Of a stretch of DNA of 64,000 nucleotides, positions 19,419-41,062 are shown piece by piece (position 1 is the first letter of the stretch; each line of letters starts with the position of its first letter). The notes beneath the pieces were generated by a model, which did no database searches, was not told where the DNA came from, and saw only the letters and a list, made by a program, of their open reading frames with translations. The position numbers and the translations under genes are program-made. Origin of the DNA: a bacterium. Lineage in GTDB: Bacteria; UBA8248. The stretch spans positions 2,496,001 to 2,560,000 of the forward strand of contig OZ241875.1 in NCBI GenBank assembly GCA_965203325.1. The letters run 5' to 3'.

Positions 19419-19472
19419 GGGAACGGGACTTCACCGCTTGCGTGGGAATCACCTTGAATGTCTGGTTTTTCC

Positions 19473-20141: not shown

Positions 20142-20553
20142 TCGTGGCACAAACCATCGTCAACTACTTTATACCCGAATAGTTTCCCCCAGCTTTACGA
20201 TGGCCGATATCTTCTATGCCTAGCTAGACTGCAAGCGTATAGACTCGCATTCGTTCGGTAAGCAGGACGAGGTGCACTTCGCCAAGGGTGTGGACCGGAG
20301 CATTTGGATAAAATTTATAGGTGTCTGAGCATGGTCATAATGAAGCCATTACGGGCTGGATTTTGGAAGATTGTCCGACAGGACCCCGCTTAGACACTCA
20401 GAAGTTGTAATTCATCCGCTTTCGTTTTGATTACGTCCTTTGAACAACGAATCCCGAGCGAAAACAGGAACAATGAGCCTTTCCAAATAATATCAACGGG
20501 ATAAGTCAATGAGCAAAAGCTCTGCACCGGATGATTTTCGTGAAGATGCGCTA

Positions 20554-21144: not shown

Positions 21145-21479
21145 CGGAAACAGCGCTCCCGCTTCTTCGGTTTTATTGACACCTCGCCATCATGGCCCAT
21201 CACGTGGCCCTCGCGCCGGGATTTGCGCGCTGCGGACTTCACGGCTGTCGAATTCCGGAAGGCGATCATCTCGCGGAACTTCCAGGTGGTGTCGACGTGC
21301 ATGAGGGGAAACGGCGGCGGGGCAGGATAAAACGCCTTCGTCGCCAGATGCAGCATGACGGAGGAGTCCTTGCCGATGGAATAGAGCATGACGGGACGGC
21401 GGCACTCGGCCATCACTTCCCGCATGATGTGGATGCTCTCCGCTTCAAGGCGCTGAAGGTGGCTGGGCTTGCGCATCAT
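21141..21479 (-). pseudogene. cysD: Truncated sulfate adenylyltransferase subunit 2 (first ~74 codons only)
   Basis: [44 protein letters not shown], then unrelated sequence. Confidence 0.85.
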
Positions 21480-21920
21480 ATCCCATCGATTTCATGAGGT
21501 GGGCGGCAATTCCGTTCAATGTTTGCGCGCGCTCAGCTTGGCTGTGAGGCCATCCTTGAACCGATAGATTCCAAACGTGATGATTTCCGGGAATTCGTCT
21601 GAAATTACGTCGAGTCACCGCCGGCACAGGGTCGCCAGAGAGAGCACTACCGCCATCTTGCCGAATCCCGACCCGACGCGTATGTGATCGCCGCCGCCGG
21701 TCTGTTGCCGGATCTTCCAAGAGGGCGAAGGAGTCGATGCCCTGTAGCTGGACCCGGCAGTTCTCGCAGGCGACGTGGGTGGGCATATTTGGTAAGGGCG
21801 TGAACCGAATAACCATCTCATATCCTGATCGTGATTACCGTGAGTTTTGAAATCTGACAGTGGAGAATATAGCATTGGAAACGACCCGGTGAAATCAATT
21901 TCTCAGGCCTTGAGCAGGCA

Positions 21921-23309
21921 ATGGAGGATATGCAAGTGGCCAGGACAATCGACCTGAGCGTTGGCCCGATACCCGGCCATTTCCGCAAAATGGCGATTCC
22001 CGCCGCGATCGGAGTTGCGGTCACCAGCCTGTACAACGTCGTGGACAATTATTTCGCGGGCCTGCTGTCGGTGGAAAGCCTCGCCGTGCTCTCGCTCGCC
22101 ACCACCGTGATCTTCCTGCTCACCGTGCTGTCTATCGCCACGAACGCCGCGATAGTCGCTCTCGTCGGCAACGCCCTGGGCGCGCAGAAATTCGCGGATG
22201 CGAAACGATTGGCTTGCCAGGGGCTGAGCTACGCGGTCATCCTCTCGCTCGCGCTGGCCATCGTCTTCCTGGCGCTTGCACCCTCGCTTATAGGCGCGAT
22301 TTCGGTGCCGGGAAGCCTTAGAGAGACGACCATCGCCTATCTGAATATCGCTATTCTATCCACGCCCGCGTTTATTGTGGCGTTCAGCGCCAACGGGATT
22401 CTGATGACGCAGGGCCAGGCGGTCCACATGCTGCGCGCCCAGACAGCGTCCTGCATCGCGAACATCGGCCTGAACCCGCTCTTCATGTTCGGATTTCCGG
22501 GCGTGATCCCGGGACTTGGCATCATCGGCATCGCCGTCTCGACCCTGGTCTGTCAGGCCGGCGTGATGGTTTTCATCCTCCGCCAAGCCCTGAACTCGGA
22601 TCTCATGCGCAAGGGCGGATCGTCGACCTACCGTCCGATACGGGAGGATTTCGCCAGCATCGCGAAAATGGCGCTTCCCATCGGCACGGGCTACGCCCTG
22701 ATCGTGATCGGCATATTCGTCGTGCAGGTTTATCTCAAAAAATTCGGCCCAGAGGCGATAGCCGCGTTCGGGGTCGGATTCAGAATCCAGCAGATCCTCC
22801 TGATGGCGGGACTTGCCATGGCGACCACGCTGCGCGCGATTGCCGCTCGGAACTTCGGAGCGGGCGAATACGACCGCGTACGCGAGGCGTTCCGGTTCTG
22901 CATCAGGGCCGGAGCCGGGTTCATGTTCCTGGCGGCGCTGCTCCTCTGGATGGCCGGCCGTCCGCTCATGACCTTGTTCGCGGACGATAAGGAGGTCGTT
23001 CGCATCGGCGCCGACTTTCTGAGGGTATACGGATTGTTGCTGCCGGTTCACCTATTCACTTTCTCCATGGATTCGCTGCTCCAGGCCTTCAAGCGTCCGG
23101 CGATTACGCTCTTCGTCACCATATACAGGGAAATATTCGGTATCGCGTTCTTCGTGGGCGTATTCGTACTTGCCCTGGGAATGGATACGCTGGGCGTCTG
23201 GCTCGGAGTCGCCGCGAGCGTCGTCACCGCATGTCTTCTGGCTTTGCTCACCACGATGCGAGTCGCACGTCAGGAGATGGGCGGGCTGTTCCGAGCCAAG
23301 ACTGGTTGA
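21921..23309 (+). CDS. MATE family efflux transporter
   Basis: LYNVVDNYFAG, NIGLNPLFMFG and ARNFGAGEYDR motifs; about 12 TM segments. Confidence 0.88.
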   Translation: MEDMQVARTIDLSVGPIPGHFRKMAIPAAIGVAVTSLYNVVDNYFAGLLSVESLAVLSLATTVIFLLTVLSIATNAAIVALVGNALGAQKFADAKRLACQGLSYAVILSLALAIVFLALAPSLIGAISVPGSLRETTIAYLNIAILSTPAFIVAFSANGILMTQGQAVHMLRAQTASCIANIGLNPLFMFGFPGVIPGLGIIGIAVSTLVCQAGVMVFILRQALNSDLMRKGGSSTYRPIREDFASIAKMALPIGTGYALIVIGIFVVQVYLKKFGPEAIAAFGVGFRIQQILLMAGLAMATTLRAIAARNFGAGEYDRVREAFRFCIRAGAGFMFLAALLLWMAGRPLMTLFADDKEVVRIGADFLRVYGLLLPVHLFTFSMDSLLQAFKRPAITLFVTIYREIFGIAFFVGVFVLALGMDTLGVWLGVAASVVTACLLALLTTMRVARQEMGGLFRAKTG

Positions 23310-23792
23310 CGATGACGGACATCCCCGAAACCTGTGCGGGTCGAGATTCGTTATACTCGCGTTGATGCAGCAGGGTCGCGGCGCTCGACCGCGAGATGCG
23401 CTTGCGCACCTCGCCAGCCTCTCGTGCGGGTTCGTCGCTTCACTTCATCGTCCTTGCCTACCCGGGGCAGAAAATACTGCAGAAAACTAAAAATACACGA
23501 TAATGCTATGATAATAAGGATATTAAATACGAAAAAAATAAGCGGCTATTGTATAATTGAACATGAATCAGGATCAGGATTTCCATTTAGCATAAGGGGA
23601 GGTTCTTCGCCGCCCGGGAGGGACTCGGCGAAGCCCGGGGAGACCGTGGAATCATGGATTGTGAGTTCTCGACGCTGAACGATAGCGACGCGTCCGTGGT
23701 ATACCGCCCTAGGCAATCCGCTAGGAAACCGCGAGCGTACCGGACACGGCCGAAGTGTCCTCGCTCGCAAGAGGCGCCGCTCGTTCCCCATA

Positions 23793-24180
23793 CTCGGTTT
23801 TTCCACCGCCGCGTGGAAGCTCGCCCCGCGCGAGGGCTTTATGGGCTGGACGCCGCAGTTGCGCGAGAAGAACCTCTCTCCTCGTGGTCGACAACCCGAG
23901 GTTCCTCATCCTGCCATGGATCAAGGTCCCCGGCCTCGGCTCGCACCTCATCGCCATCATCCGCAGGCGCCTGCCCGGAGACTGGACCCAGCGCTATGGC
24001 ATCACCCCCGTGTTCATCGAGACCTTCGTCGAGACGCCGCGCTACACCTTCACCGTCTACAGGGCATCGGGATGGATCCGCGTTGGAACCACACAGGGAC
24101 GAGGGCGCTACGACAGGGACAGAAAGGATGTCCGGCTGCGGCCGCTCCGCAGCGACTGGAAGCAAGTCCTCAACCGCTGA
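23793..24180 (+). pseudogene. DUF4338 (DruA-like, usually transposase-associated) fragment, frameshifted near 23880
   Basis: LGFSTAAWKLAPREGFMGW..REKNL in one frame, then VVDNPRFLILPW...ETFVETPRY..YRASGW..VGTTQGRGRYDR in another. Confidence 0.75.
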
Positions 24181-24252
24181 AACAATCTCCATCACCCCAC
24201 GACCGAATCGATTACCCATCTACTAATCCACCCAATTCATGAAGGAAGCGAT

Positions 24253-24600
24253 ATGTCGATTGATATAGCATGGGAGCGAAGCGGCGATTTGTTGGTTGCC
24301 TTGATATCGGGCCGTCTCGACGGCAGCACCGCCGATTTGTGCGATAGCGCGCTCGAATCCGGTGTTGACGATGATGATCATGGACTCGTCATAGATTTCG
24401 AGAACTTGTCCTACATCAGCAGCGCGGGCCTTCGGATCGTCTTGAGAGCCGCAAGGAAGTTCACCGGACCGGACAAGAAATTCGCGATCTGCTCGCTGTC
24501 CGATTCCGTAAGGGAGATTGTGGCGATCAGCGGTTTCGACAAGCTCATCGCGGTTCACGGTTCACGGGAAGAGGCGATCAGCGAACTCAACAAAGGCTAA
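24253..24600 (+). CDS. STAS-domain anti-sigma factor antagonist
   Basis: GRLDGST, DFENLSYISSAGLR and ISGFDKL motifs. Confidence 0.9.
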   Translation: MSIDIAWERSGDLLVALISGRLDGSTADLCDSALESGVDDDDHGLVIDFENLSYISSAGLRIVLRAARKFTGPDKKFAICSLSDSVREIVAISGFDKLIAVHGSREEAISELNKG

Positions 24601-24658
24601 GCCTTCTCCACTTTCGGAGACGCAAAGAGCGTGGAGAACATTTTTAGGGAGATCCAGA

Positions 24659-24946
24659 ATGAATGACACCAACCGTGAAGAAAAAGTCGTTTCCATAAAA
24701 AGTGCCGTCGATTTCGACATCGTGGCGGACAACATGCTCGAGATCGCGGAATTTACGGTCGAGAAGTACGAATTCAGAAATGACACCACGCTTCCCGCCG
24801 AAGTGCGCGAGGAGGCGATGGCGCAGATCAGAAACGTCCTGTGGGCGAAAGTCGAGGAACTGAAACAGCGGCGCAAGGAGATTCTCGAAGATATGTTCAA
24901 CATGGCGGAACAAGCACTCGATAACATCGTGGAGAACAAGGACTAG
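24659..24946 (+). CDS. Small acidic helical hypothetical protein upstream of the PKS
   Basis: GGGAG RBS, 95-aa ORF with coding-like codon usage. Confidence 0.7.
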   Translation: MNDTNREEKVVSIKSAVDFDIVADNMLEIAEFTVEKYEFRNDTTLPAEVREEAMAQIRNVLWAKVEELKQRRKEILEDMFNMAEQALDNIVENKD

Positions 24947-25086
24947 CACGAATTGCGCGGCGCACGCGGCACTGGCCGGGATCACCGAGGCCAACCAAAG
25001 GCGAGAATCATGATGGAGCAGGCCGCTGTTCCTGATGCGCGTATCCGGGGATATGGCCGGGAATCCAGAGCGCTGAGGAGGGCTCT

Positions 25087-28000
25087 ATGGGCTCTGCCGA
25101 ACCAGATTATCCGGTAGCGATTGTAGGCTACAGCTACCGTATGCCGGGCGGGATCCATACCGATGACGATTTCTGGCGTCTGCTCAGCGAACGCGAAATC
25201 GTCCAGGAGCCGGTAGCGGACCGCTACGGCAGAGGCTACCAGCCGATCGGCGGATTCTCCGGCCTGGGCCGCTTCGCCAGTCCGTATGAGGGGCTGATTC
25301 GGGAGGACGGAGAAAAGCTCATCGATCGCGGTCTTTTCGGCTTGTCGCAGGACGAAGTGGTTTCGATGGACGCGCAGGTGAAGATGCTGTTGTCTTGCTC
25401 CTGGGAGACCTTCGAGCGCGTCGGTTGGGACATGCATTCGTTGCGCAACAGTCCTACGGGCGTTTTCATCGGAGGTCAGACCCCGGCAACGGCCAACTGG
25501 CGCCCGATGCAGGGCGCCGGCCCGTTTGACGTCATGAACACCAGTCTCGCCATGCTGGCCAACCGCATTTCCTACCACTTCAATCTGATGGGACCGTCGG
25601 CCACCTATTGCACCGCATGTTCCGCCAGTCTCACCGCCTTGCACGCGGCTGTCGCCGCGCTCCGCTCGGGTGACTGCGAACAAGCCCTCACCGGGTCTGT
25701 GAACTACCTGGTAGGGTCCCGATTGAGCGCCGCATTCAACGTTCTTGGCGTCATCAGCCCGGACGGCAAGTGCCATTCCTTCGATGCGGAGGCCAACGGG
25801 TACATGCGCTCGGAAGGGGCCTTCGTATTTGCGTTGAAGCCCCTCGAGGCGGCCGAACGGGACGGGGACCCCATCCACGCCGTAGTGGAGGCGACGGCCG
25901 TCAATTCGGCCGGCGCCGCCGACGGCAGCAGCGGCCTGGCCCAAGGGCGGTACATTACCGCGCCCACTCGTCATGCGCAGATTGAGCTGATGCGCACGGC
26001 CCGTGAACGCGCCGGCAGGTCGCCGCAGGACTTCGACTATGTAGAAGCCCACGCCACCGGGACCGTGGTGGGTGATCGAATCGAAGGCAATGCCATTTCA
26101 GAGGCGTTCGGCGGAGTCGAACGCGAGGTTCCCCTCCGGATTTCCAGCGTGAAGAGCAACGTCGGACACATGGAAGCCGCCGCTTTCCATTGCGCCCTGC
26201 TCAAGGTCATCCTGATGATGCAGCGGCGCACGTTCGCGCCGAACTCCAAGAATTTCCTGGTGCCGAATCCGGAGATCGACTTCGAGAGCTGCCCCATACA
26301 GGTGCAGACGATCTGCGAATCCTTCCCTGAGCGCCCTGCCGTGGTCGGCGTCAATTCGTTCGGCTTCGGCGGTGCGAACGGACACTGCGTGGTGCGTGAG
26401 TACGCTCCCGAGAAGCCGCGGAGCTGGTCGTCAGCCCTGGCCCCGAAAGCCGGATTCATGATTCCGCTCTCGGCGCGAACCTCCGGCGCATTGACCCGGA
26501 GCGCGCGGCAACTGCGCGAAGCGCTGGACGAGCAGGAGATGGACCTCTATACGCTGGCCGGGAACCTCAGCCGCCGCCGCACCCATTTCGCCACCCGCAC
26601 TGCCTTTGCAGCGCGTGACCAACGGGAACTGGTAGAGGCGCTGGACGCCTTCATCGAAGACCCCGCGCCGGTCGCCACCGTAGATGATCGCGAGCGACGG
26701 GTGGCTTTGGTCTTCTCCGGGCAGGGCACGCAATGGGCCGGTTGCGGCCGCGCGCTCTACGATGCGGACCCCGTTTTCCGCCGCACGGTCGACGCCATCG
26801 ACGAGCACTGGCGGGAGCACTCGGACTTCTCGCTGCGTGAAGCCTGTTTTTCCGTCTCCCAGGAGGAAATCAACGAAGTCCAGTTGGCCCAGCCCGTCAT
26901 TTTCATGATCCAGTGCGCGCTGGTGGAGCTGCTTAAAACCTGGGGCGTCTATGCGGATTGCGTGGTCGGCCACAGCTCCGGGGAGGTCGCCGCCGCATAC
27001 GCCTGCGGAGCGCTCTCGCTGGCGGAGTCGACGCGCCTGGTGTTCCATCGCGCCACGCTGCAGCAGCGCGTGGCCGGTTCGGGCCGCATGTTGGCGGTCG
27101 GCCTCGACCGGGCGGGCGTGGAGGAAATGCTCGAAGCGCTGCGCGTTCCCTTCCGACCCGAAGAAGGACCGACTCAGGTGGAGGTCGCCTGCGAGAACGC
27201 GCCGGCCAACACCGTCATCTGCGGCAAGGAGGCCTCCCTGCGGCCCATCATGGAGGAACTCGAGCGGCGCCGCCTGCAGAATCAACTGCTGCCGGGCAAT
27301 ATCGCTTTCCACTCCAGCGCCATGGACCCGCTCGAAGACGACGCGCTGGCGGCCCTCTCCTTCCTCAACGATTGCGTCTTCGAGGCCGAGGCGCCGTTCG
27401 TCTCTTCGGTGAGCGGCGTGAAGACGGAGCGGCTGGAGGGCGCCTACTGGTGGTCGAATATCCGCAAGCCTGTGCAGTTCGCTGCGGCGATGGAAACCAT
27501 CAAGCAGGATTACCGGCCCGACGTGGTGCTGGAAATCGCGCCCCACAGCGCCTTGCAGCCCATCATCGCACAATGTCTGGAAGACGCTCCGGCGATGGCA
27601 TGCATCCCGACGCTGATGAGAAACACGGATGTATGCCTCGGCTTTCAGCAGACTCTGGGCGCCCTTTTCCGGGCCGGCGTACCACTGGATTTCGCCGCCC
27701 AGTATCCGCGTCCCGAGCCTGTCGCCCATGTGCTTCCCGGATATCCGAGAGAAGAGCAGGCTGTGGTGGACATCATGCGCGACGACGAGTTCTACGTTCG
27801 GCAGGGGGAGTATTCGCATGGCCCGCTGGTCGGGCACAGAGTGCCTAGTGAGCACATGCTCTTCGAAGCAAGGCTTTCCGAGGCGGACTTTCCCTGGCTG
27901 GCGGATCACCGCGTCCATCATGCGGCGATCTTGCCGGGGGCCGGCTACATCGAACTGATCCTGGAAGCTCTTGGGGGCGTTCCCGTTTACTTCGACGTGA

Positions 28001-31000
28001 TCGAGTTCCTACAGCCCTGTCCCATCCCCAAGGAACCGGTCCGCCTGCAAACGGCCCTGTATCCGGTAGCCAATGACCCGGATGCATTCACGTTCACGAT
28101 CACCTCGCGGTCATACGACCCCGAGGCTAGGAGCGAGGTCCATTGCCGCGGCAAGGTGCGTCTGGTGAATGACGACCACATGGTGGACGTGCCAAGTCGG
28201 CTGGCTGATATCGATACGACCTGCTTTGAGTCCTCTATTCTCGCCGACGACCGTGATTTTTACGAGCGCCTGGAAGCAGTCCTTAGCGGGACTTTCGAAT
28301 ACGGACCCTATTTCAGGACTATCAGGCGCGTTCTGGTAGACAAGATATCCCGGGCTTCTCTCTTTGACGTAGAGATGGATGAGGGATTATGGGCGACGGG
28401 CAAAGAGGAGGGCTATGTCTCGTGTCCCCCCTTGTTCGACGGGGGATTGCAGATATTTCTCTACCATTTGCTGAACGCCGCCGACCTTTTCGCCATTCCG
28501 CAGCGAGCCGAATACGTTACTTTCCTTCGTCCGCCCACCGGACCGCGGATCACCTGCCATGTGACGAAGCCTGCTGAAAATAGGAGCGATGTGGACGAAA
28601 AGGGTCAGTATTCCATTGGTCGCGGCGAAACAGCAGGGGGCAGCATCAGTTTCTACGATGGCGCCACGGGTGATCTCCTCGCCCACATCGGCGAATACAC
28701 TTATTTCACGTCCAATCCGAGTTGGAACGACTTGCCCGAGAGCAAACACAGGATTTCCTGGCAGCCGAAATTCGTCCCCGAGGGGAAACCACTTGCGGAT
28801 CGATTGCCCGACGGAGAGATCGAACCCGCCGCCTTGATTGCCGCTCTCGAGCAGCCGCAAGGGCGGGAGCGCTACGCCTGCCACGTCGTAGAGTTCGCAG
28901 GGAGTCGAGAGCCCGAGCAGACCGTCCTCGAACAGTGTGCCGACCACCTCTCGAACGGCGGCGCACAGACCGAATTCTGGCTGCTCGGCGATACGGAAGA
29001 GAGCACTCGCTCCTGCTACGACGCTTTCGGTCAACGCGATGCCGCGCTGCGTTTCGAGTGCCTCGATCCGGCCGCTCAGCCGGAACTGGATTCAGGCCTG
29101 CTGCGCCCGGGCGTCGCGGAAATCCTTTTCCTGCACGCAGATGGCGAGGCGCCTGGAGCGGAGCAATGGGGACTCGCGAGGCAGCTGGCTGTGGCCGGAG
29201 GCTTGGCGCTGGTCTCTCACGGCGAAGGCGGTGTCATCGAACCGGGCGACGGTTGGACCATGGTCCGAGCCGGTCGACGGACAACCCTGCTGCAGGCGCC
29301 TCAGTCCCTGCCGGAAATCGCCGAAACTGCCGAGCTGCCGGGGCCGCGATGGGTGCTGGGCGAACAGGGTAGTTGGGCGGCTGACTGGGCGGGCATGCTC
29401 AATGCGCCGGACGTGCATACAATTCCCGATGAAGCTCTCGCCATCGACGTCATCCACTTGCTCGAAACGTGGCCGCAGGCGGCCGAGGTCCGGGCAATCG
29501 ATTTCTTCTGCGGCGCGGATCCCGAGGATCCGACGGGAGAAAAGGCCGTATCTCGTTTTGTCGCCCTTGTCCAGGCGCTGGTCTATTGCAGGATGGAGAA
29601 CGCGAATCACCCGTGCCGGCTGACCGTGGTGACGCACGGCGCCGCCCTCGATGTCGAGAACCCGAGCGCGTGTGCTCTGTGGGGAGCGGTTCGGAGCATG
29701 GCCGTGGAAATCAACGAGGAAGCCCGGATTGATTTCCGTCTGGTGGACCTTGGCGATTCGGATGACTTGAAGACTTTGGCATGGCTTGCCCGGTGCGATT
29801 TGCGTGAGCGCGAACTTGCGGTGCGGGAGAACCGCTTGTGGGCGCCGCGGATGGTCAGCATTCCGGAGCGGTATTCCCGGGCGCCTGCCGGTGAGAAGCC
29901 CGCCTACCGCCTCGCTCTCGAAAATCCGGGGCAGATCGCCGGCCTCGAGATGAAGACCTGCGAACTCCCTCCGTTGGGGCCGGATGACGTGGAGATCGAG
30001 GTGACGGCGGCGGCCCTCAATTTTCGCGACGTCATGGTCACGCTGGGCCTGTTGCCCGCGTTGGCCTATGAACGCTCCGCCCTCGGGCGTGAAGTCGGCA
30101 TGGAAGGAAGCGGGACCGTCCGCCGCGTCGGGTCGGGGGTGCGGGGTTTCCGCGCCGGTGACGAGGTAGCGTTCATACAGGGCGGCTGCATCGCGAATCG
30201 CGTCGTGGTCAACCGGCACCTCGTCTTCGCCAAGCCTGGCCGCCTGAGCATGGAAGAAGCCGCGTCAGTCCTGTCGGTCTACGTCACCGCTTACTATTCG
30301 CTGATTCACCTGGCCCGTCTGCGCAAGGGCCAGCGCGTCCTCATCCACTCAGGGATGGGCGGCGTCGGACAGGCCGCCATCGCACTGGCCAGGCATGTGG
30401 GCGCGGAGATTTACGCCACGGCAGGCAGCGAAAGCAAGCGGGAGCAATTGCTGTCGCTGGGTGTGCGAGCGGCCTTCGATTCGCACAGCCACGTCTGGTA
30501 CGACGACCTGATGGAGGCGACCGAGGGCGAGGGAGTGGACGTCGTGCTGAACTCCCTGGCCGGCCGCCACGTCGAACTTTGCCTGAAGGCCCTGCGTCCG
30601 AGCGGCTGGCACTGCGAGATCGGCAAAGTCGACATCTATGCCGACAACGACCTCGGCCTGCGCGTCTTCCGCAAGAACCTGCGCTTCGCTGCCATCGACG
30701 TGGACCGCCTGATGATTGACGACCCGCTCCTCTCGCATGAACTCTCTCAGGCTTGCCTGGACTTGCTCGATGAGGGCGCGTTGCCGCCGCTTCCGGTTAC
30801 CGTCTTTCCGTTCAAGGACTACGCCAAGGCCCTTCGCCTGATGACCACAGGCCGGCATCAGGGGAAACTCGTGCTGAAAGCCCCGGAGGCTTCCGGCGAA
30901 CCCGGATTTCCGATTGCCGACGTGCGTCCGCTGTTCGATCCCGATGCGACTTATCTGGTCACGGGCGGCCTCGGCGGGTTCGGGCTGCGGCTGTTGCCCT

Positions 31001-32127
31001 ATCTGGTGGCGTCGGGGGCGCGCCATATCACCCTGATGGACCGCGACCCCGAGCGCCTCCGGGACGCCGACTGGATCCGTCAGTCGAGCGCTCTCGTCTT
31101 CATGGATGAGGATGCCGAATTCGACATCGTATCGGGTGACGTGGCGGTGGAAGAAGACGTCCGGCGCTGCATATCTCAGTTAAAGAGGCCACTCAAGGGC
31201 GTATTCCACCTCGCCGCCGCGCTGGACGACCGTCTGCTGGCCGACATCACCAACAAATCCATAGGAAAGGTTTTCGCGCCCAAGGCGGAAGGCGCCCTGC
31301 ATCTCCACCGCGCCACGGCCGGCTATCCTCTCGATTGCTTCGTTCTTTTTTCCTCTACGGCCTCGGCACTGGGCAACCCCGGCCAGATCAACTATAGCGC
31401 GGCCAACGCATTCCTGGACGGGCTGGCCGCAAATCGCCTGCGGAAGGGTCTGCCATGTCTCTCCTACAACATGGCCGCCGTCGCCGACGCCGGCATGGCC
31501 GCACGCAGTCTTCCCGTTTTGCGGATCATGAGGGCCACCGGCATGCCGCCGGTGAGCAGCGACTTCGCCATCACCAACCTGGATTACGCCCTGCGCTCTA
31601 TGAGGGGGGAGCACCACCTGATCACGGCCATGTTCAAGCGCCTGGTGTGGACGGTCGACTACCCGGATTACATGCGCATCGGGCGTTTGATGAACAATCA
31701 GGATGCCTTCGAGGCCGGCGTGGACAGCGAGTTGAAGTTCGAGAGCGTCGTGGCGCAGATTGCGGCCAAGGTCGCCGAGCTCTGCGGCCACGAGGAGGGC
31801 GGCGTGGAAGAACCGCTGGCCAGTTTCGGGCTCACGTCCATCTCGGTCGCCGAGCTGGGCACGTTCATCCAGACGCAGTTCAACTACCGGGTGAGCGCGC
31901 TCGAACTGATGACCACGGCGTCGGCCATGTCGCTGGCGCAGGGCATCATCCAAGGCAAAAATGATGTGGAAGAGGAGCAAGCCGAAACGGATACGGTCGA
32001 CCTCGCGGACGCTTCCCAAGATGTCAATCAGCGCGTCCGCCGTGCGCCATCGGCTTTCGCCAATGCGCTCGAAGACCATTTTCCGGATGGAAACAGCGCT
32101 GCGTCAGGCGCTTTCGCTATTCGCTAA
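25087..32127 (+). CDS. swfA: Mono-modular type I PKS/FAS (KS-AT-DH-linker/pseudo-MT-ER-KR-ACP), SwfA-like
   Basis: KS TACSAS/HATGT/GHME; AT GHSSG and AFHS; DH HRVHHAAILP and DGGLQ; ER LIHSGMGGVG; KR TGGLGGFG, LDD, YSAAN; ACP GLTS; no TE. Confidence 0.85.
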   Translation: MGSAEPDYPVAIVGYSYRMPGGIHTDDDFWRLLSEREIVQEPVADRYGRGYQPIGGFSGLGRFASPYEGLIREDGEKLIDRGLFGLSQDEVVSMDAQVKMLLSCSWETFERVGWDMHSLRNSPTGVFIGGQTPATANWRPMQGAGPFDVMNTSLAMLANRISYHFNLMGPSATYCTACSASLTALHAAVAALRSGDCEQALTGSVNYLVGSRLSAAFNVLGVISPDGKCHSFDAEANGYMRSEGAFVFALKPLEAAERDGDPIHAVVEATAVNSAGAADGSSGLAQGRYITAPTRHAQIELMRTARERAGRSPQDFDYVEAHATGTVVGDRIEGNAISEAFGGVEREVPLRISSVKSNVGHMEAAAFHCALLKVILMMQRRTFAPNSKNFLVPNPEIDFESCPIQVQTICESFPERPAVVGVNSFGFGGANGHCVVREYAPEKPRSWSSALAPKAGFMIPLSARTSGALTRSARQLREALDEQEMDLYTLAGNLSRRRTHFATRTAFAARDQRELVEALDAFIEDPAPVATVDDRERRVALVFSGQGTQWAGCGRALYDADPVFRRTVDAIDEHWREHSDFSLREACFSVSQEEINEVQLAQPVIFMIQCALVELLKTWGVYADCVVGHSSGEVAAAYACGALSLAESTRLVFHRATLQQRVAGSGRMLAVGLDRAGVEEMLEALRVPFRPEEGPTQVEVACENAPANTVICGKEASLRPIMEELERRRLQNQLLPGNIAFHSSAMDPLEDDALAALSFLNDCVFEAEAPFVSSVSGVKTERLEGAYWWSNIRKPVQFAAAMETIKQDYRPDVVLEIAPHSALQPIIAQCLEDAPAMACIPTLMRNTDVCLGFQQTLGALFRAGVPLDFAAQYPRPEPVAHVLPGYPREEQAVVDIMRDDEFYVRQGEYSHGPLVGHRVPSEHMLFEARLSEADFPWLADHRVHHAAILPGAGYIELILEALGGVPVYFDVIEFLQPCPIPKEPVRLQTALYPVANDPDAFTFTITSRSYDPEARSEVHCRGKVRLVNDDHMVDVPSRLADIDTTCFESSILADDRDFYERLEAVLSGTFEYGPYFRTIRRVLVDKISRASLFDVEMDEGLWATGKEEGYVSCPPLFDGGLQIFLYHLLNAADLFAIPQRAEYVTFLRPPTGPRITCHVTKPAENRSDVDEKGQYSIGRGETAGGSISFYDGATGDLLAHIGEYTYFTSNPSWNDLPESKHRISWQPKFVPEGKPLADRLPDGEIEPAALIAALEQPQGRERYACHVVEFAGSREPEQTVLEQCADHLSNGGAQTEFWLLGDTEESTRSCYDAFGQRDAALRFECLDPAAQPELDSGLLRPGVAEILFLHADGEAPGAEQWGLARQLAVAGGLALVSHGEGGVIEPGDGWTMVRAGRRTTLLQAPQSLPEIAETAELPGPRWVLGEQGSWAADWAGMLNAPDVHTIPDEALAIDVIHLLETWPQAAEVRAIDFFCGADPEDPTGEKAVSRFVALVQALVYCRMENANHPCRLTVVTHGAALDVENPSACALWGAVRSMAVEINEEARIDFRLVDLGDSDDLKTLAWLARCDLRERELAVRENRLWAPRMVSIPERYSRAPAGEKPAYRLALENPGQIAGLEMKTCELPPLGPDDVEIEVTAAALNFRDVMVTLGLLPALAYERSALGREVGMEGSGTVRRVGSGVRGFRAGDEVAFIQGGCIANRVVVNRHLVFAKPGRLSMEEAASVLSVYVTAYYSLIHLARLRKGQRVLIHSGMGGVGQAAIALARHVGAEIYATAGSESKREQLLSLGVRAAFDSHSHVWYDDLMEATEGEGVDVVLNSLAGRHVELCLKALRPSGWHCEIGKVDIYADNDLGLRVFRKNLRFAAIDVDRLMIDDPLLSHELSQACLDLLDEGALPPLPVTVFPFKDYAKALRLMTTGRHQGKLVLKAPEASGEPGFPIADVRPLFDPDATYLVTGGLGGFGLRLLPYLVASGARHITLMDRDPERLRDADWIRQSSALVFMDEDAEFDIVSGDVAVEEDVRRCISQLKRPLKGVFHLAAALDDRLLADITNKSIGKVFAPKAEGALHLHRATAGYPLDCFVLFSSTASALGNPGQINYSAANAFLDGLAANRLRKGLPCLSYNMAAVADAGMAARSLPVLRIMRATGMPPVSSDFAITNLDYALRSMRGEHHLITAMFKRLVWTVDYPDYMRIGRLMNNQDAFEAGVDSELKFESVVAQIAAKVAELCGHEEGGVEEPLASFGLTSISVAELGTFIQTQFNYRVSALELMTTASAMSLAQGIIQGKNDVEEEQAETDTVDLADASQDVNQRVRRAPSAFANALEDHFPDGNSAASGAFAIR

Positions 32128-32159
32128 CCCTGAAAAGGGGTGCACAGGAGAAAGTTGCC

Positions 32160-33902
32160 ATGCCTAATGCGCTTCTTGTCAGCCCCGAGCAGCCCCCTAC
32201 CTACTGGGGCGCGAACTATGCTCTCGGGATTTCGGGCGTGAAGGCGACATTTCCGCCCCTGGGTCTGCTGACCGTGGCCGCGATGTTCCCACCGGAATAC
32301 GACCTGCGCGTCGTGGACATGAACGTGGCTGCCCTCGAGGATTCTGACATCGAATGGGCGGATGTGGTGTTTACCTCCACCATGATCGTTCAACGCGTCT
32401 CCCTGCAAGCCGTCATCGAGCGATGCAACCGGGCCGGGGTTCCCGTAGTGGCCGGGGGGCCTCACCCCACCACGTTTCACGACGAGATCGAAGGCGTGGA
32501 CCATTTTGTGCTGGATGAGGTCGAGGAGATCTTCCCTGATTTTCTGCGTGACCTGGAGAACGGTGCGGCCAAAGTCATCTACCGGGAGCCGGGAAAGCCT
32601 GACGTGACGCAAACGCCCGTGCCGCGCTTCGACCTCATCGACACGGAGAACTATTACTCCATGGGCGTTCAGTTCTCCCGGGGGTGCCCGTTCGACTGCG
32701 AGTTCTGCGACATCACCAAACTCTATGGCCGCGTGCCCCGGACCAAGGCGCCCGCACAGATCGTGGAGGAGTTCGAATCGCTGTATCGACTGGGCTGGCG
32801 AGGTCCTGTTTTCATGGTCGACGATAATTTCATCGGCAACAAGGCGGAGGCGATGAAGCTGCTGCCGGTGGTCACCGAGTGGCAAAAGGCCCATGGATAT
32901 CCGTTCTCCCTGTCCACGGAGGCGAGTCTGAATCTTGCCCGCATGGATGACCTGATGGACGAGATGATCGAGGCCGGGTTCAATACCGTGTTTTTGGGCA
33001 TCGAAACCCCCACCCCCAAGGCCTTGCTCAAGACCAAGAAACCGCAGAACGTCAACGAGCGGGAAGAAAATTTTCTCCTCAATTCCATTCGCAAAATCCA
33101 GCACAAGGGGATGCAGGTACAGGGTGGGTTCATCCTCGGCCTTGATGGTGACGATGAGAGCGTGTTCGATGCTCAAATCGATTTTATCCAGGAGGCGGGC
33201 ATTCCCGTTGCCCCGATCTTTCTGCTGACCGCTCTCAAGGGTACGGACATGTACAACCGCCTGATGTCGGAGAAGCGGCTCCTGGAGGTTTCCATCGGAA
33301 CTCACTCCATGACCCTCAACTTTCAGCCGGAGATGAATCCCCAGACCCTTATCGAGGGATATCAAAGGGTCACAGCCACCCTCTACGACGCGACCCTGGA
33401 GAATTACCTGAAGCGCTGCCTGACCTTGTTCGAGCACCAGAAGCCCGTCCCGCACCTGCTGAAACGGATGAGCAAGACTGCGATGGCCGTGGCCGTTATG
33501 AGCGTGCGCCGGGAGCTATCCGCAGAGCAAATCCCGGCCTTTACGAAATTCATCGCCAAAGTCTCCGAGGATTATCCCCGCATGCTGCCTGAGGCGATTC
33601 GCCTCGCCGCCATGGGTTACCATTTTGATATTATCAACCGCCAGCAAACCATGCTCCATGACTTCAAGGAATTTCTGGCGGCCGAATTGAAAGTGTTCAA
33701 GAAAGCGGCATCTCACCGACTCCAGAAAACGGAAGAAATCAGGAGTCGGCGGCAAGCGCTGTTCGCACAGACCGATGCGCGCTATCAATCGATACCCGAT
33801 GACTTCCGCTACCTTGGAGACGGGATCGAAGATTCTTTGGAATCCTTCCGGTCCGCCGTGGATGCGCAGGTAGAGCAAAGCGCACATTCGGCAGCGGTGT
33901 AA
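32160..33902 (+). CDS. swfC: B12-binding radical SAM protein (SwfC-like, probable methyltransferase)
   Basis: N-terminal PPLGLLTVAA/GGPHPT cobalamin-binding region; SRGCPFDCEFC CxxxCxxC motif. Confidence 0.8.
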   Translation: MPNALLVSPEQPPTYWGANYALGISGVKATFPPLGLLTVAAMFPPEYDLRVVDMNVAALEDSDIEWADVVFTSTMIVQRVSLQAVIERCNRAGVPVVAGGPHPTTFHDEIEGVDHFVLDEVEEIFPDFLRDLENGAAKVIYREPGKPDVTQTPVPRFDLIDTENYYSMGVQFSRGCPFDCEFCDITKLYGRVPRTKAPAQIVEEFESLYRLGWRGPVFMVDDNFIGNKAEAMKLLPVVTEWQKAHGYPFSLSTEASLNLARMDDLMDEMIEAGFNTVFLGIETPTPKALLKTKKPQNVNEREENFLLNSIRKIQHKGMQVQGGFILGLDGDDESVFDAQIDFIQEAGIPVAPIFLLTALKGTDMYNRLMSEKRLLEVSIGTHSMTLNFQPEMNPQTLIEGYQRVTATLYDATLENYLKRCLTLFEHQKPVPHLLKRMSKTAMAVAVMSVRRELSAEQIPAFTKFIAKVSEDYPRMLPEAIRLAAMGYHFDIINRQQTMLHDFKEFLAAELKVFKKAASHRLQKTEEIRSRRQALFAQTDARYQSIPDDFRYLGDGIEDSLESFRSAVDAQVEQSAHSAAV

Positions 33903-33927
33903 GTCGTATCACCGTTGAAATAGCAAG

Positions 33928-36453
33928 ATGGAAGAAAAAGGAAACATGACCGAAAAAACAGTCGCCGACACGGCAGTACCCCCGCTCGTTGGAAACTTGC
34001 CGCCGTATTGCCGAAGAGACGTCGATACCCTACGCCGATACGTTCATGCGGTGGTCAGTGAGGAAGCACCGACAGCCGCTGTATCGCCAGATGATTTCAA
34101 AAATGTATTGCTGACCGGGGCGACAGGATTCATCGGGCGTTTCTTCCTGCACGACCTCCTGCGGCAAAACGCCGAACTCATCGTGCACTGCATTGTCCGG
34201 CCCCCGGAAGCGCCCGGGCCCGAGAGCATTCGCACCGTTCTCGAGCAGGCCGACATCTGGGACGAATCCTTCGCGCCGCGCATACGCGTCATGGTCGGTG
34301 ACGTCGCCGAGTCGAGATTCGGGTTGAGCGAAACGGATTTCGATGTTCTGTGCCGGCAGATCGACGCAGTCTATCATCTTGCGGCCGATATCAATCTCTC
34401 GTCTTCTTATCTCGCCATACGCAAGGTCAATACGTTCAGCATCCGCAACGTACTCGAATTGTGCTTGCGCAATCGCTTCAAGCACTTGTTCTACGCTTCG
34501 ACCATGGGCGTGTTCCCCCAGTATTTCTGCGGCTTCGCTCATGAATTCAAGGACAGCCGCATCGACCACCAGATGCAACCCGACCTTGCGAGTATGAAGA
34601 GAATGTTCCCGCTCGGTGGTTTGCTCGGCTACCCGTGGAGCAAGCTGACATCCGAGCAGATCCTGCTGTTCGCGCAACAGGCCGGTATGCCGCTGGCGAT
34701 TTTTCGGCTGCCGCAAACCAGTCTTTCCAGCAAGGGGTATACCCAGGCGAACGATCTGGGTGTGCGGATGTTTGCTGGAGTTGTCGATAGCGAAACGCTA
34801 CCGGCAGAATACACGTTTCGATCAAGCAACGAAGCGGTCGATACGTTGAGCGAGGTTTGTACGGCCATTTCCCTGAATCCTGAACGGCGTTTCACCATCT
34901 ACCATTGCTGCAACCCGCAGTTGGACCCTTACGACCTGGAACCTGCCGATTTCGGGTTATATTGGCCCGAGGTTTCCAGCGAGTCGTTCAAACGCGCCTG
35001 TCAGGCCCGCGGTGAAAACTCGCCGCTCCATGGCTACTGGGCCGTGCTGGATCATCTGGGGAAATACTGGCTCAGCAAAGACAAGCCGACGGACAGGTTG
35101 CCCATTTGTGACCGTGCCATCCGGGAGGATTGTCCTCAACCGATTAAGTGGCCGGGCACATTGCCCACGCTCAGACGCTCAATCCAATGGGTCAAGGCTC
35201 ATCGATGTGAATGGCCATATCCCATTCCGCAAAGTCGCTTGGACTTCGACTGCCTGATTGCCCAGGCCAAGGGCTACGCTGAGGAGCAGGAGGTTCCCTT
35301 CGACTCGGCTTACCCGGCGTGGATTCGTCAAAATCTGCAACAACTGGTAGGGGCATTGAATGCGCCCGATACACGACTGATTAAAGATAAGATTCACGAC
35401 ATCGTCTTCGAACTGAGTCGTTTTTTGCGCAGCAACGCAGGGTTGGCCCGCGAACGGCGGCTGCATCCGGAGATCGAACGCGAGGAGATCACACGGCCGG
35501 TCTTTATAATCGGGATCAATCGCACCGGCACCACCTACCTGCACCGCCTGATGTCGCGCGACAATCGTTTCTGGGCGTTACGGTTATACGAGTGCATAGA
35601 ACCGGTCCTCCCGAAGGATGATTACGCCACTGTGGCGGGCACTCCCGACGACCCCCGCCGCTCGCGAACCGACGAAGCAGTGCGCTCCTCCGACATCTTC
35701 AAGGTTTTGGAGGGTGTTCATGATGTTAGTGTCGATGAACCAGAGGAGGATTTTCAGATTTTTCGAATGGCATTTTCGGCATGGGTCTATACCGCTCAGT
35801 TCCATATACCGGAATATGGCCGGTGGCTGAACGCGAACGGTTCGGAGGATGCCTATGCCTACCACCGCCGCACCATGCAGCATTTCACCTGGCAGCGCCG
35901 CCAGCGTGAGCCCGGGCACCAGGGCCAATGGCTGCTCAAGATGCCCTTTCATCTCATGGAGCTGGACTCCCTGATCAAGACCTATCCGGACGCCCTGTTC
36001 ATCCAGACCCATCGAGAACCCACCCAGTTCATGGGATCCTGTAACAGCCTCGTGGAGCGAGTACGCTCCATTTGCAGCGAGCCCCTGCCGCCGAACGAGT
36101 TTGGCGCCGAGCAGTTGGCCTTCATGAGCGGCATGCTCGATAAGGCCGTGGACTTTCGGCTGGCCCATCCCGGGCTGGAAGACCGCTGGGTTGACGTGAA
36201 CTACATTGATCTGGTCGAGAATCCGTTTGGTGTGATTCGCGGAATCTACGAACACTTCGGCTGGACACTCGGGCAGGCGGCATCCGGTACGATGGAGGAG
36301 TGGCATGAACGCCAGATCGAAAAACGGCGCACCGAGACGCGGCATCGCTACGCTCTCGAGGACTACGGCCTTACGCCCGAGGCGGTCAACGCCGCATTTG
36401 CCCGCTACCGGGACTTCATCACCAGCCGCGGGATTCGTTCCTCGGGATTTTGA
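33928..36453 (+). CDS. swfB: Thioester reductase (R) domain fused to a sulfotransferase (SwfB-like)
   Basis: LTGATGFIG and GYPWSK SDR motifs; C-terminal half has INRTGTT PAPS loop, WLLKMPFH and THREP. Confidence 0.8.
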   Translation: MEEKGNMTEKTVADTAVPPLVGNLPPYCRRDVDTLRRYVHAVVSEEAPTAAVSPDDFKNVLLTGATGFIGRFFLHDLLRQNAELIVHCIVRPPEAPGPESIRTVLEQADIWDESFAPRIRVMVGDVAESRFGLSETDFDVLCRQIDAVYHLAADINLSSSYLAIRKVNTFSIRNVLELCLRNRFKHLFYASTMGVFPQYFCGFAHEFKDSRIDHQMQPDLASMKRMFPLGGLLGYPWSKLTSEQILLFAQQAGMPLAIFRLPQTSLSSKGYTQANDLGVRMFAGVVDSETLPAEYTFRSSNEAVDTLSEVCTAISLNPERRFTIYHCCNPQLDPYDLEPADFGLYWPEVSSESFKRACQARGENSPLHGYWAVLDHLGKYWLSKDKPTDRLPICDRAIREDCPQPIKWPGTLPTLRRSIQWVKAHRCEWPYPIPQSRLDFDCLIAQAKGYAEEQEVPFDSAYPAWIRQNLQQLVGALNAPDTRLIKDKIHDIVFELSRFLRSNAGLARERRLHPEIEREEITRPVFIIGINRTGTTYLHRLMSRDNRFWALRLYECIEPVLPKDDYATVAGTPDDPRRSRTDEAVRSSDIFKVLEGVHDVSVDEPEEDFQIFRMAFSAWVYTAQFHIPEYGRWLNANGSEDAYAYHRRTMQHFTWQRRQREPGHQGQWLLKMPFHLMELDSLIKTYPDALFIQTHREPTQFMGSCNSLVERVRSICSEPLPPNEFGAEQLAFMSGMLDKAVDFRLAHPGLEDRWVDVNYIDLVENPFGVIRGIYEHFGWTLGQAASGTMEEWHERQIEKRRTETRHRYALEDYGLTPEAVNAAFARYRDFITSRGIRSSGF

Positions 36454-36716
36454 GGCGAGCGCGCGCAGAAACGGGAAGCATATCCTCAATCGGTAAAATC
36501 AAACCCCCATCACCCTACGACTGAACGGATACGAACGTTTACCGGCACGGACGCTACGAGATACGCGTGAGTTAGAATTCGTCCGCATCCGATTTGATTA
36601 CATATCGTAGATAACCGAACCTCGGCTGAAACTCAAAATAAACAAATACCCACAATACTTTCAGCAGACTACAAGGATTCTAAGCCCGCTGAAAACCCCC
36701 CACCCTCTGAAAACAC

Positions 36717-36869
36717 GCGAAATACCCGAAAGCCGCTGAGTGCCTGGCAGGAGACCGGGAGGAGTTGCTCGCCTTCTACGACTTCCAGGCGGGGCACTGG
36801 CAGAGCCTTCGGACGACGAACCCCATCGAGTCGACCTTCGTCACCATTCGCTTGCGAACGGCGAAGACG
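36717..36869 (+). mobile_element. IS256-family transposase internal fragment
   Basis: AKYPKAAECLAGDREELLAFYDFQAGHWQSLRTTNPIESTFVTIRLRTAKT. Confidence 0.8.
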
Positions 36870-38408
36870 GTCTCCGTGCCGGTACTGGACGACGCCATCG
36901 ACGAGGGCAAGGAGGTCATGCGGCTCCTGCTCTCGAACCCGAAGGGGGCGTATCTCAGGAACGTCCACAGGAAGGCGCGGGGGGTCATCACGAACGACGA
37001 CCCGCTGCAAAGGATGTGGCTCGCGCGCTTCGGCCGCGCGGCGGCGGGCCACGTCGCCGAGGCGATTGACGGACGCCTTTCGGGCGGCGGCGCTGCGGGC
37101 GTCGTGCTGGGCGGCCACAGCCTCACGGGCGGGGCGGAGCGCGATGCTCTCGAGTCGCGCCTCGCCGAGGCCCTGCTTGAGGAGAGGGAGGCCCGGCTCG
37201 GGCGCGGCGAGGAGGCGCCGGCGCCTTCGGTGCGCGAGGTCGCGATGTCCGATCTCCTCCTCGCGAGTTCGTTTCACATGGCCTCGGCGGAGAAGGTGGA
37301 CGCCGGCTCGCGCTGGTCGCTGTGGGGCCGGGGCGCGCGCTCCTCGTTCGAGGGCGCCGAGGGCGAACTCTCGCTGGATGGCGACGTGACGACGGCGACC
37401 GTGGGCTTCGACTACGAGCGGGCGCGCTGGCTGGTGGGCGTGGCGCTCTCGCGGAGTTCGGGCGACGGCTCATACAAAATGGGCGGCGCGTGCGACGCGG
37501 GCTGCGCGGGCGAGGTCGAGAGCGCCCTGACGGGTGTCTACCCCTACGCGCGCTACCGTGTGAGCGGGACGTTCTCGCTCTGGGGCGCGGTGGGCCACGG
37601 GCAGGGGGAGATGACGCTCACGCCCGGGGGGTCGTCCCCGCTGGAGGCCGACGTCGCGATGGGCATGGCGGCGGCGGGGGCGCGCGGGGTCGTTCTGCCC
37701 GCGCGCGAGGCGGGCGGGTTCGAGCTCGCGCTCCGCGCGGACGTCCTGGTGACGAACACGCGCTCGGACGCTGCGGCGGGCCTCGCGGAGACCGAAGCGC
37801 AGACGAGCCGCGTGCGCCTCGTGCTGGAGGGTTCGCGCTCGCTCAGGTTCGGCGATGCGGTGCTGACGCCCTCGCTGGAGATAGGGTTCCGGAACGATTC
37901 GGGCGACGCGGAGACGGGCGGCGGGGTGGAGGCCGGCGGCTCTGTCCGCTGGGCCTCGGGGGCCCTGACGACGGAGTTGCGCGCGCGGAGCCTGCTCTCC
38001 CACGGCGAGAGCGGTTATGAGGAATGGGGCGTGAGCGCCTCGGTGGCGTACGCTCCCGGCTCCGGGGGACGGGGCCTCACGCTGCGGGCGGGCTCCTCGT
38101 GGGGCGCCTCCACGGGCGGTGCGGAGCGGCTCTGGTCGCAGGCGGCGGGCCTGGCGCCTGCCGGTGCGTTCGAGCCGGGCGGTGCGGGCTTCGAGGCCGA
38201 GGCGGCCTGGGGCCTCGACGCCCCGCGGGGGCTGCTGACGCCCTATACGGGCGTGGCGGTCACCGGGGACGCGGAGACCTGGCGCGCGGGCGCGCGGTGG
38301 AAGCCCGGTGCGGCCACGGAGGTGAGCCTCGAGGCGAGACTCACCGAACAGGCCGGCGGCGGGAGACCCGAAGGCGGCCTCCTGCTCAAAGGCTCGAAGC
38401 GGTGGTAG
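36858..38408 (+). pseudogene. 5'-truncated Calx-beta/autotransporter beta-domain gene fused in frame to the IS256 fragment
   Basis: Near-identical to 63056-64000; WSLWGRG, GVYPYARY, LTPSLEIGFRND, terminal W; lacks signal peptide and passenger domain. Confidence 0.8.
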
Positions 38409-38857
38409 GGGCCGAACCGGCTGGCCGCGCGGGCCGTGGAGCGGACTTTTTCAACGGAACCTGGCACCTTGTGAAGTCAAGGCGCCAGATTCCCGGTGTT
38501 GCCTGAAGCGATCTCCGGTGCAGGCGCGGACCACAGCTCTCCTGAGTGAGTGTCAACGACGCGGGCCGATGTCCCCCACGGTCAGCGAGAATGCTGCTGA
38601 TTCACCGGGACCACCTGAATCACCTGCCACTGCCGAAGTGGTGAGGGTACAGGTCTGACTCCTTTCGGACAATACTTCATGCAACCGCCGGTTTCAGCGC
38701 GGCCATCACCCTGCCACCGAATCGTTACACCGTTAGTAACCATTCAGTCGTCGGGTAATAGCGTCCCCGACTTCAGAAGCAGTTCATTGTATATTGCAGG
38801 AAAGTTAGTTTGAACCGATGTTTTTCTGACCTATATCACCCCACGAGAGAACGGTTA

Positions 38858-40882: not shown

Positions 40883-41062
40883 CGTCGCTTCCAGGACGAT
40901 CGCTCGAATGGATGCGCGGGCGTTGGAATCAATCCGCTTTCGGTTTGATTACAAGCAATGATTAACAGATTTTATTCGATATTGATCAAGACAGATAACA
41001 AGTATAATTTCAATAAGTTACATCGAAAACACAGGCAATGAATGCGGTACTGCATATCGAAC

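Follow-up and report, generated by a model that had tools for sequence, protein, structure and literature searches.

A complete swf cluster in the window

We analysed a 64,000-nt stretch of a bacterial genome (GTDB lineage UBA8248; contig OZ241875.1, positions 2,496,001 to 2,560,000), hereafter the window, which carries a cluster of the swf type, one of the two polyketide synthase (PKS) families that dominate sponge metagenomes. The host genome is a single 4.39-Mb contig, 95.5% complete. Three genes lie head to tail on the + strand in the order A-C-B: swfA (25087..32127), swfC (32160..33902) and swfB (33928..36453). SwfA (2346 aa) is an iterative mono-modular PKS/fatty acid synthase (FAS) with the order KS-AT-DH-pseudoMT-pseudoKR-ER-KR-ACP; the Pfam scan gave KS, AT, DH, ER, KR and PP-binding models and no thioesterase (TE) model. 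SwfC (580 aa) is a cobalamin radical S-adenosylmethionine (SAM) protein of the HpnP-like three-domain type, with B12-binding, Radical_SAM and DUF4070 models, and SwfB (841 aa) is a thioester reductase fused to a sulfotransferase (NAD_binding_4 and Sulfotransfer_3). The first-pass annotation had described the same TE-less PKS, B12 radical SAM and reductase-sulfotransferase in the same order, and the open reading frames (ORFs) and Pfam models agree with it. Its span contains the genes as described, but position 24253, where it starts, belongs to a STAS gene, which is followed by a 95-aa gene before swfA begins.

The catalytic motifs of swfA, swfC and swfB are intact in every domain. The KS of SwfA contains KSNxGH, and its Cys178 and HATGT (position 322) were found in 59/59 aligned relatives. 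DAQVK at 95-99 stands in place of DPQQR, in line with the rule that the second Q is changed to I or V; relatives have DPQVR, DPHVR or DPQMR. The AT contains QCALVEL (609), GHSSGE (628) and IAFH (739), with GHSSG in 58/59 and IAFH in 59/59 aligned sequences. The DH retains His941 and DGGLQ, the KR Tyr2103, and the ACP Ser2251, the conserved serine within GLTS. The CxxxCxxC motif of SwfC was present in 59/59 sequences; SwfB contains TGxTGFxG, YxxSK (67/68) and NR[TS]GTT (68/68), and its nearest solved relatives are the reductase of MxaA (E 6.5e-34) and 2zq5 over the sulfotransferase half (E 2.7e-40). The cofactor genes of the host include three phosphopantetheinyl transferases (PPTases), CobS and MetH.

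The swf family is defined by domain order and by an altered second Q of DPQQR, HATGT, QCALVEL, GHSSGE and IAFH (PMC3908369). The earlier assignment to swf is supported by the domain architecture, by the genes present and by every signature motif published for the family. Domain orders and KS/AT signatures are like those of the swf fosmids pPS11G3 and pPSA11D7 and of POR_0547-0550, the protein sizes are close (2346/841/580 aa for SwfA, SwfB and SwfC here, 2349/839/585 aa published), and the order A-C-B is that of POR_0547-0550 (PMC3908369). In pPS11G3, an anti-anti-sigma gene and a gene for a 92-aa hypothetical protein (ORF18, ORF19) likewise precede swfA, and for another SwfA, phosphopantetheinylation of the ACP has been demonstrated (PMC3908369). 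The present copy differs from the published ones in lying within a delimited tRNA-Ser insert together with an adenosine 5'-phosphosulfate (APS) kinase gene, and in its host: the TadA protein of the window is 95% identical to one labelled 'Nitrospinae bacterium', which is not among the hosts named in the cited portions of PMC3908369.

Full-length SwfA relatives are 60-94% identical to SwfA, compared with 30-36% for the two other PKSs of the host genome. These motifs and this identity gap support the clade placement, and the cluster is an intact member of the swf family. The two other PKSs (about 3480 aa each, at 458024-468479 and 2825890-2836315 of the genome) each adjoin a PPTase gene, and we read both as SupA-type; the sup cluster likewise encodes a sponge-symbiont type I PKS/FAS for lipid-like chains. 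Unlike swf, these two contain DPQQR and HGTGT, have an intact methyltransferase motif and lack a reductase-sulfotransferase or radical SAM partner.

The comparisons below draw on 78 swf loci from a SwfB-based genome scan (best 80 of 84 matches kept), all titled metagenome-assembled genome (MAG), and on the 23 genomes of the genus (the host, G000, and 22 congeners). In the sequencing-run search, with runs of small word shares (X17-X24) left out, nine runs held at least half of the words of the window; five are labelled sponge metagenome and four have coded organisms. By these labels, the swf copy is associated with sponge symbionts.

Proposed product and pathway

We consider it slightly better than an even chance that the swf cluster is functional and yields a primary alkyl sulfate with a long chain that, as a rule, carries a methyl branch; the product would probably be a sulfated, methyl-branched fatty alcohol. 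In the first step, the intact domains suggest that PPTase-primed SwfA would condense malonyl-CoA iteratively, with KR, DH and ER acting in each cycle to give a saturated acyl-ACP; its pseudo-domain would have no methylation role, so SwfA itself would not branch the chain. SwfC could then methylate an unactivated carbon through B12/radical chemistry, a tailoring step that would be optional because some clusters have no swfC. The SwfB reductase would free the chain as an alcohol, which the fused sulfotransferase would sulfate from 3'-phosphoadenosine 5'-phosphosulfate (PAPS), a release step that natural SwfA-SwfB fusions support. PAPS may be supplied by the chromosomal Sat and the island APS kinase, the genes for both of which are present.

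A methylated alkyl sulfate was proposed in 2013 by Della Sala et al. (PMC3908369). The same product class, named again in the first-pass annotation as a methyl-branched alkyl sulfate or sulfated fatty alcohol, gains support here from the APS kinase, the natural fusions and the pseudo-methyltransferase, but the idea itself is that of the 2013 authors. Family, product hypothesis and cross-taxon spread are thus already in print. The literature searched (subscription journals outside) names no swf product, and the cited portions of PMC4245539 and PMC9864124 add none; with bioRxiv supplements also outside, it holds no SwfA pseudo-methyltransferase, no link between swf and APS kinase and no SwfA-SwfB fusion. 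The pseudo-methyltransferase region, the kinase link and the single-chain fusions are new here. The copy leaves the product unsolved but narrows the test.

The central region of SwfA and the proposed role of SwfC

The region between DH and ER (SwfA residues 1215-1600) was predicted to fold like a degenerate pseudo-methyltransferase. Its model, with a predicted local distance difference test (pLDDT) score of 87, matches the pseudoMT/pseudoKR of LovB, PsoA and FAS and the CurJ methyltransferase, and the SAM loop is degenerate (VVEFAGSRE, compared with VLEVGAGTG in the SupA-type PKS of the host). A profile alignment of this region with the SupA-type PKS recovered the pseudoKR part alone (probability 1%), and no PDB entry was matched in a sequence search. 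Because the predicted pseudo-methyltransferase is degenerate, branching, if any, would most likely fall to SwfC.

SwfC resembles the HpnP clade of hopanoid C-2 methylases in domain architecture (B12-binding, radical SAM and DUF4070) and, unlike HpnP, is tied to a PKS operon; hopanoid-methylase activity was deemed unlikely for it (PMC3908369). Sponge lipids are rich in mid-chain methyl branches at odd positions (9-Me-C16, 11-Me-C18; PMC7840048). By our reasoning, a PKS alpha-methyltransferase such as that of SupA would methylate even carbons of an even chain, and odd branches would not easily be given. If SwfC makes the branch, the expression host needs both B12 and PAPS, and both may have limited the 2013 attempt in Escherichia coli. 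SwfC might instead be no simple methylase but a ring former, a chain coupler or an enzyme of another lipid, with the alkyl sulfate backbone unchanged. It has no characterised close relative, and at least four loci carry two swfC copies; we nevertheless regard this as very unlikely, as the three-domain architecture is HpnP-like and the tested members of that clade methylate (PMC10697835).

Proposed chain release by SwfB

A search of 1.84 billion representatives returned 35 long proteins among the best 150 SwfB matches. Four of them (P0401, P0405, P0408 and P0413) are SwfA-type PKSs with the reductase-sulfotransferase directly after the ACP, and P0404 and P0414 show the same fusion in N-terminally cut form. 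The fusions are 39-52% identical to SwfA and contain HATGT, IAFH or GLNS motifs; P0401 (3179 aa) is 52% identical to SwfA and 47% to SwfB. All fusion clusters that were looked up are singletons with no habitat given. These natural fusions support SwfB as the predicted release module, and they offer a one-gene expression target. Two divergent fusions were also seen, P0444, which ends after the reductase, and P0482, which has HGTGT.

The terminal reductases of MxaA and TgTR share fold and motifs with the SwfB reductase, and protist multimodular PKSs that end in reductase-sulfotransferase domains appear at about 30% identity; unlike all of these, SwfB is a free-standing protein that serves one iterative module. 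The TgTR reductase converts octanoyl-CoA to octanol (10.1101/2023.05.23.541938). The CurM sulfotransferase-thioesterase of the curacin pathway also provides a PAPS-dependent sulfation at chain release, as proposed for swf (PMC3908369); swf differs in having no thioesterase and in releasing the chain reductively first.

The curacin precedent (PMC3908369) raises the alternative that the sulfate is a leaving group and that the alkyl sulfate is eliminated or displaced to give an alkene or an ether/thioether lipid, which would account for the scarcity of alkyl sulfates among the compounds reported from sponges (PMC6780655). In curacin, however, a sulfotransferase and then a thioesterase act on a beta-hydroxyacyl-ACP, whereas here a reductase is followed by a sulfotransferase with no TE, and no eliminating or displacing enzyme recurs beside the 78 loci (neighbour clusters read by representatives). 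We consider this outcome unlikely. It is also rather unlikely, in our view, that SwfA skips reductions and yields a hydroxylated or unsaturated chain, with the sulfate placed on a secondary hydroxyl, a sugar or a lipid acceptor. Iterative PKSs can program their domains (PMC3908369), and a congener locus carries a P450, a second sulfotransferase and an MpaB-like oxygenase; these three, however, are absent from the island and from the recurring neighbour clusters that could be read, and the reductase and sulfotransferase are fused family-wide and joined to the ACP in the natural fusions.

An APS kinase gene beside the cluster

The island carries cysC (20554..21144, − strand), the APS kinase domain left from a cysNC gene (TIGR00455, 248.8 bits against a cut-off of 138.7), and a mini-cysD (21141..21476, − strand) with an internal in-frame deletion, whose stop overlaps the cysC start. 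Island CysC is the single PF01583 match of the genome, in which no other APS kinase was found, and is 82.7% identical to the C-terminus of a congener CysNC. Mini-CysD (111 aa) keeps its native end and was matched by the CysD model over its N-terminal part only, under cut-off. In the congener G016, intact cysD and cysNC lie upstream of swf; the host block is inverted relative to it, and the middle of each host gene has been lost in frame, joining the CysN start to the APS kinase domain.

A Sat-type ATP sulfurylase is encoded elsewhere in the host genome. Within the genus, Sat was found in 13/23 genomes, an APS kinase (apsK) over cut-off in 3/23, including both swf carriers, and cysD in 2/23, exactly the two swf carriers. 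The simplest reading of these genes is that the host shed a superfluous sulfurylase but retained the kinase as a source of PAPS for SwfB. Among the 78 loci, cysC adjoins swf in 13, of which 11 are from Nitrospirota; in Nitrospirales, the swf-adjacent cysC was the sole over-cut-off copy in 5/5 genomes tested, and 9/10 hosts without an adjacent cysC carry one elsewhere. A kept APS kinase argues that sulfation is the real output of the cluster.

Selection, expression and the weight of the evidence

Compared with the congener, the ratio of nonsynonymous to synonymous substitutions (dN/dS) was 0.27 for swfA, 0.19 for swfC and 0.29 for swfB. RNA data were contigs of two sponge metatranscriptomes from one study, derived from related strains. 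Identity was about 92% over the STAS gene and the 95-aa gene and 93-99.9% over the parts of swfA and swfC that the contigs cover; bins 36564-37227 and 37892-38555 had no depth, and both were covered by the paired DNA run.

Besides a group II intron, the island holds broken cysD/cysN and remnants of DruA, IS256 and an autotransporter, and in another congener, G014, all that is left of swf is a broken tail of swfB. The copy could accordingly be a silent passenger in a decaying island, and the promoter scan (4 sites, compared with 5.3 in shuffles) would agree; the terminator scan was also at chance level. We consider this highly improbable, as the three large ORFs are open with active sites intact, dN/dS lies at 0.19-0.29, near-identical DNA occurs in nine runs and RNA contigs exist from related strains.

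A number of points nevertheless tell against a methyl-branched alkyl sulfate as the product, or against parts of the proposed route. The whole swf cluster gave no product in E. coli, and such sulfates are not known as widespread in sponges, as stated in the cited portions of PMC3908369. As for branching, the pseudo-methyltransferase keeps the His of LHxD and an acidic residue (Asp) after beta2, so that residual activity is possible; SwfC scored over cut-off in no curated NCBIfam model; methyl transfer has been confirmed for only several HpnP-clade proteins (PMC10697835); and swfA and swfB occur without swfC in 15/78 loci (fetched DNA). Two- and four-electron reductases are inseparable by sequence (10.1101/2023.05.23.541938). 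With regard to the kinase, congener G015 has apsK without swf, and the swf host G045 showed no apsK. The two in-frame joins could have arisen by chance, at about 1 in 9; the Nitrospirota/Nitrospirales link represents one event or clade and could reflect a native neighbour; and the dN/dS of cysC (0.17) mostly predates the deletions. Finally, the RNA contigs cover almost nothing of swfB, which is more divergent between strains, and barely cover the island cysC; they are a hint of expression in related strains, short of proof.

The cluster lies in an island at tRNA-Ser(CGA)

The cluster is part of a 21.3-kb insert (19757..41062) at tRNA-Ser(CGA) (41063..41154, − strand), whose 3' end is 4.6 kb from swfB. 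The congener G012, with flanks 97% identical to those of the host, has an empty site: the 69 nt before its tRNA 3' end match window positions 19699-19767 at 63/69 positions, and this alignment delimits the insert as 19757-41062. At the left end (19757..19767, − strand) lies a degenerate copy of the tRNA-Ser 3' end (10/11 nt), the last 11 nt of the tRNA (41063-41073) recurring there with one mismatch. This repeat is not above chance, since a site inside swfA scored equally (26). The island is real, and the empty site, not the short repeat, is the evidence. The insert was absent in 11/11 congeners whose region was fetched, and the anchoring at a tRNA gene that the first-pass annotation had claimed is confirmed by this absence and the empty site. 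An exact search had found no duplication of the tRNA 3' end of at least 12 nt on the swf side; the conclusion drawn from it, that there is no end duplication, was overturned by the empty-site alignment.

Of the features expected of a tRNA-targeted element, insertion at the 3' end, an empty site and a short degenerate duplication were found, and an integrase of its own was not: there was none among the island ORFs scanned, and tblastn gave no match of the window recombinases inside the island. No credible excision joint was present in contigs over 19300-39200 (right end outside). The joints 20504-36685 and 36722-20505 in run X3, considered as a 16.2-kb loss, share one common depth and were attributed to a repeat copy longer by 50 nt; joint 20440-36686 was rejected because its 35-nt side lies in a multi-copy repeat.

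The tRNA-Ser(CGA) gene is a cargo hotspot. At the same site, G010 (L115:1755-16330) carries a RiPP-like set of halogenase, C39 ABC transporter, desaturase and YcaO genes, and G011 (L117) has ORFs of a size similar to this cargo, their identity unconfirmed. Because there is no integrase and the sole congener swf lies elsewhere, the island is a landing site rather than a demonstrated vehicle. The swf cluster would have arrived by lateral transfer and would now sit in a decaying insert that has no integrase; the empty site is a concrete example of how such clusters can land in symbiont genomes. The earlier suggestion that the island reveals how swf spreads holds in part: besides the real insert, it has in its favour that swf occurs patchily (1/22 congeners) and crosses phyla, but there is no integrase, the congener copy lies elsewhere, none of the plasmid records searched carries a full-length SwfB and the Nitrospirota locus looks vertical.

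The remaining island features are as follows. A small DUF6527 ORF (19776..20141, + strand; PF20137) is a passenger. The MATE transporter gene (21921..23309, + strand; TIGR00797 over cut-off) encodes a possible exporter; it was found in 0/78 swf loci within the fetched flanks and is not a conserved swf part. A frameshifted DruA/DUF4338 remnant (23790..24207, + strand; PF14236) has a second 3' tail at 36464-36525, so that DruA remnants flank the block from the STAS gene to swfB on both sides; as a general vehicle these tails were rejected, occurring in 1/78 loci. An IS256 scrap joined to an autotransporter-like C-terminal remnant (36765..38408, + strand) matches NF033543 over residues 1-39 only and no Pfam model; 'autotransporter-like' was read from sequence alone, and repeats lie at 63056-63826. 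A group II intron (38927..40883, + strand, limits approximate; RF02005, and TIGR04416 over cut-off) contains a reverse transcriptase ORF at 39469-40512.

A dispersed repeat with an imperfect inverted core (20404..20434, + strand) has about 63 copies in the genome; the window holds copies at 20404, 36571, 40922 and 57590, of which those at 36571 and 40922 are on the same strand as the first. Ten of the 63 matches lie directly before tandem tyrosine-recombinase cassettes, other copies lie at the edges of accessory blocks (sat, a SupA-type cluster, swf), and three congeners have the repeat at the same place beside tRNA-Ser. As a border of a swf unit it was rejected, being absent beside the swf of the congener and in all 78 loci.

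Distribution and inheritance of swf

The 78 loci come from MAGs of 10 named phyla and three unnamed records. Gene orders were ACB (53), AB (15), B only (4), CB (4), ABC (1) and BAC (1), with short contigs explaining some partial sets. Of 59 near-full-length SwfA sequences, two were dropped for length and 57 entered a KS-AT tree without outgroup. This tree requires 15 phylum changes; the minimum is 8, and shuffling gave 30.4 on average. Five changes each are required for Acidobacteriota and for Pseudomonadota, and Nitrospirota formed one clade, with neighbours in common across 11 loci. These tree changes and the Nitrospirota clade suggest that swf moves between phyla and is inherited within some clades; at its conserved Nitrospirota locus it looks vertical. 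Loureiro et al. had described a taxon-independent occurrence of swf across three phyla (10.1101/2022.04.01.486688); the count of 10 is new here, though part of these host phyla may be in Supplement S2 of that study. Plasmid carriage was rejected, as none of 72,556 plasmid records covers 80% of SwfB.

Among the 22 congeners, an intact swfB was found only in G016; a further 11 genomes, from the same family, order and class, gave no intact swfB. The G016 cluster, which is not at tRNA-Ser, is 93% identical at the nucleotide level over 12.6 kb. Synonymous divergence (dS) from G016 was 0.11 for swfA, 0.08 for swfC and 0.32 for swfB. The 50 reference genes (57 pairs found, seven dropped as probable wrong-frame ORFs) had a median of 0.22, with 5/50 at or below 0.112 and 1/50 at or below 0.078. 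A recent transfer between host and G016 was not accepted: dS is low for swfA and swfC, but that of swfB leaves shared ancestry possible. Within swfB, dS is mosaic, at 0.57-0.69 over residues 351-650 and 0.13-0.34 elsewhere. Upstream of the G016 swf (L085:1297-10290) lie genes for a P450, a MATE transporter, a second sulfotransferase and an MpaB-like oxygenase and intact cysD-cysNC, the MATE homolog lying further upstream; judged from these genes, the locus possibly makes a further-tailored product.

Taken at its broadest, swf might be a module for sulfolipids that ten or more phyla of the sponge microbiome exchange, bringing an APS kinase where the host lacks one, with SwfC as a possible source of 9-Me-C16 and 11-Me-C18 branches and with fusions that may extend the family beyond sponges and offer the easiest route to the product; we consider it quite unlikely that all of this holds.

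Five acidobacterial loci (L007, L020, L032, L033 and L061) carry a tandem swfC pair, and several loci of Alphaproteobacteria and Bryobacterales have genes read as efflux-pump-like after swfB.

Companion genes upstream of swfA

The two genes ahead of swfA encode a STAS protein of the anti-sigma antagonist type (24253..24600, + strand; TIGR00377 over cut-off), whose Ser57 is invariant in 19/19 aligned sequences, and a 95-aa protein of no known family (24659..24946, + strand). The latter, probably of the POR_0546 type, was modelled as a two-helix hairpin (pLDDT 88) and had no match in Pfam, Atlas or the PDB. The prediction of a complex of the two proteins scored 0.30 (mark 0.32). Near swf, the STAS gene was found in 29/78 loci and the 95-aa gene in 41/78, with one common open frame in 15. 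Among 41 genomes searched, only both swf carriers had the 95-aa protein. Of the metagenome loci found with it, 11/28 had swf alongside (fetched DNA), and several loci with full flanks had no swf; strict specificity of the pair for swf was therefore rejected. We read the pair as a frequent regulatory companion of swf.

Other features of the window

A low-GC block (49-55%) at 4000-16100, with genes for CoA transferases, a molybdopterin oxidoreductase, an MreB-like protein and a GAF-GGDEF protein, is probably another acquired segment. The ARAGORN call of tRNA-Ala(cgc) at 63617-63688 falls within an autotransporter-like repeat and is probably false; four such 72-nt calls occur alike in the genome. 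Two tyrosine recombinase genes lie in tandem at 57593-60000, one of about a dozen such pairs genome-wide.

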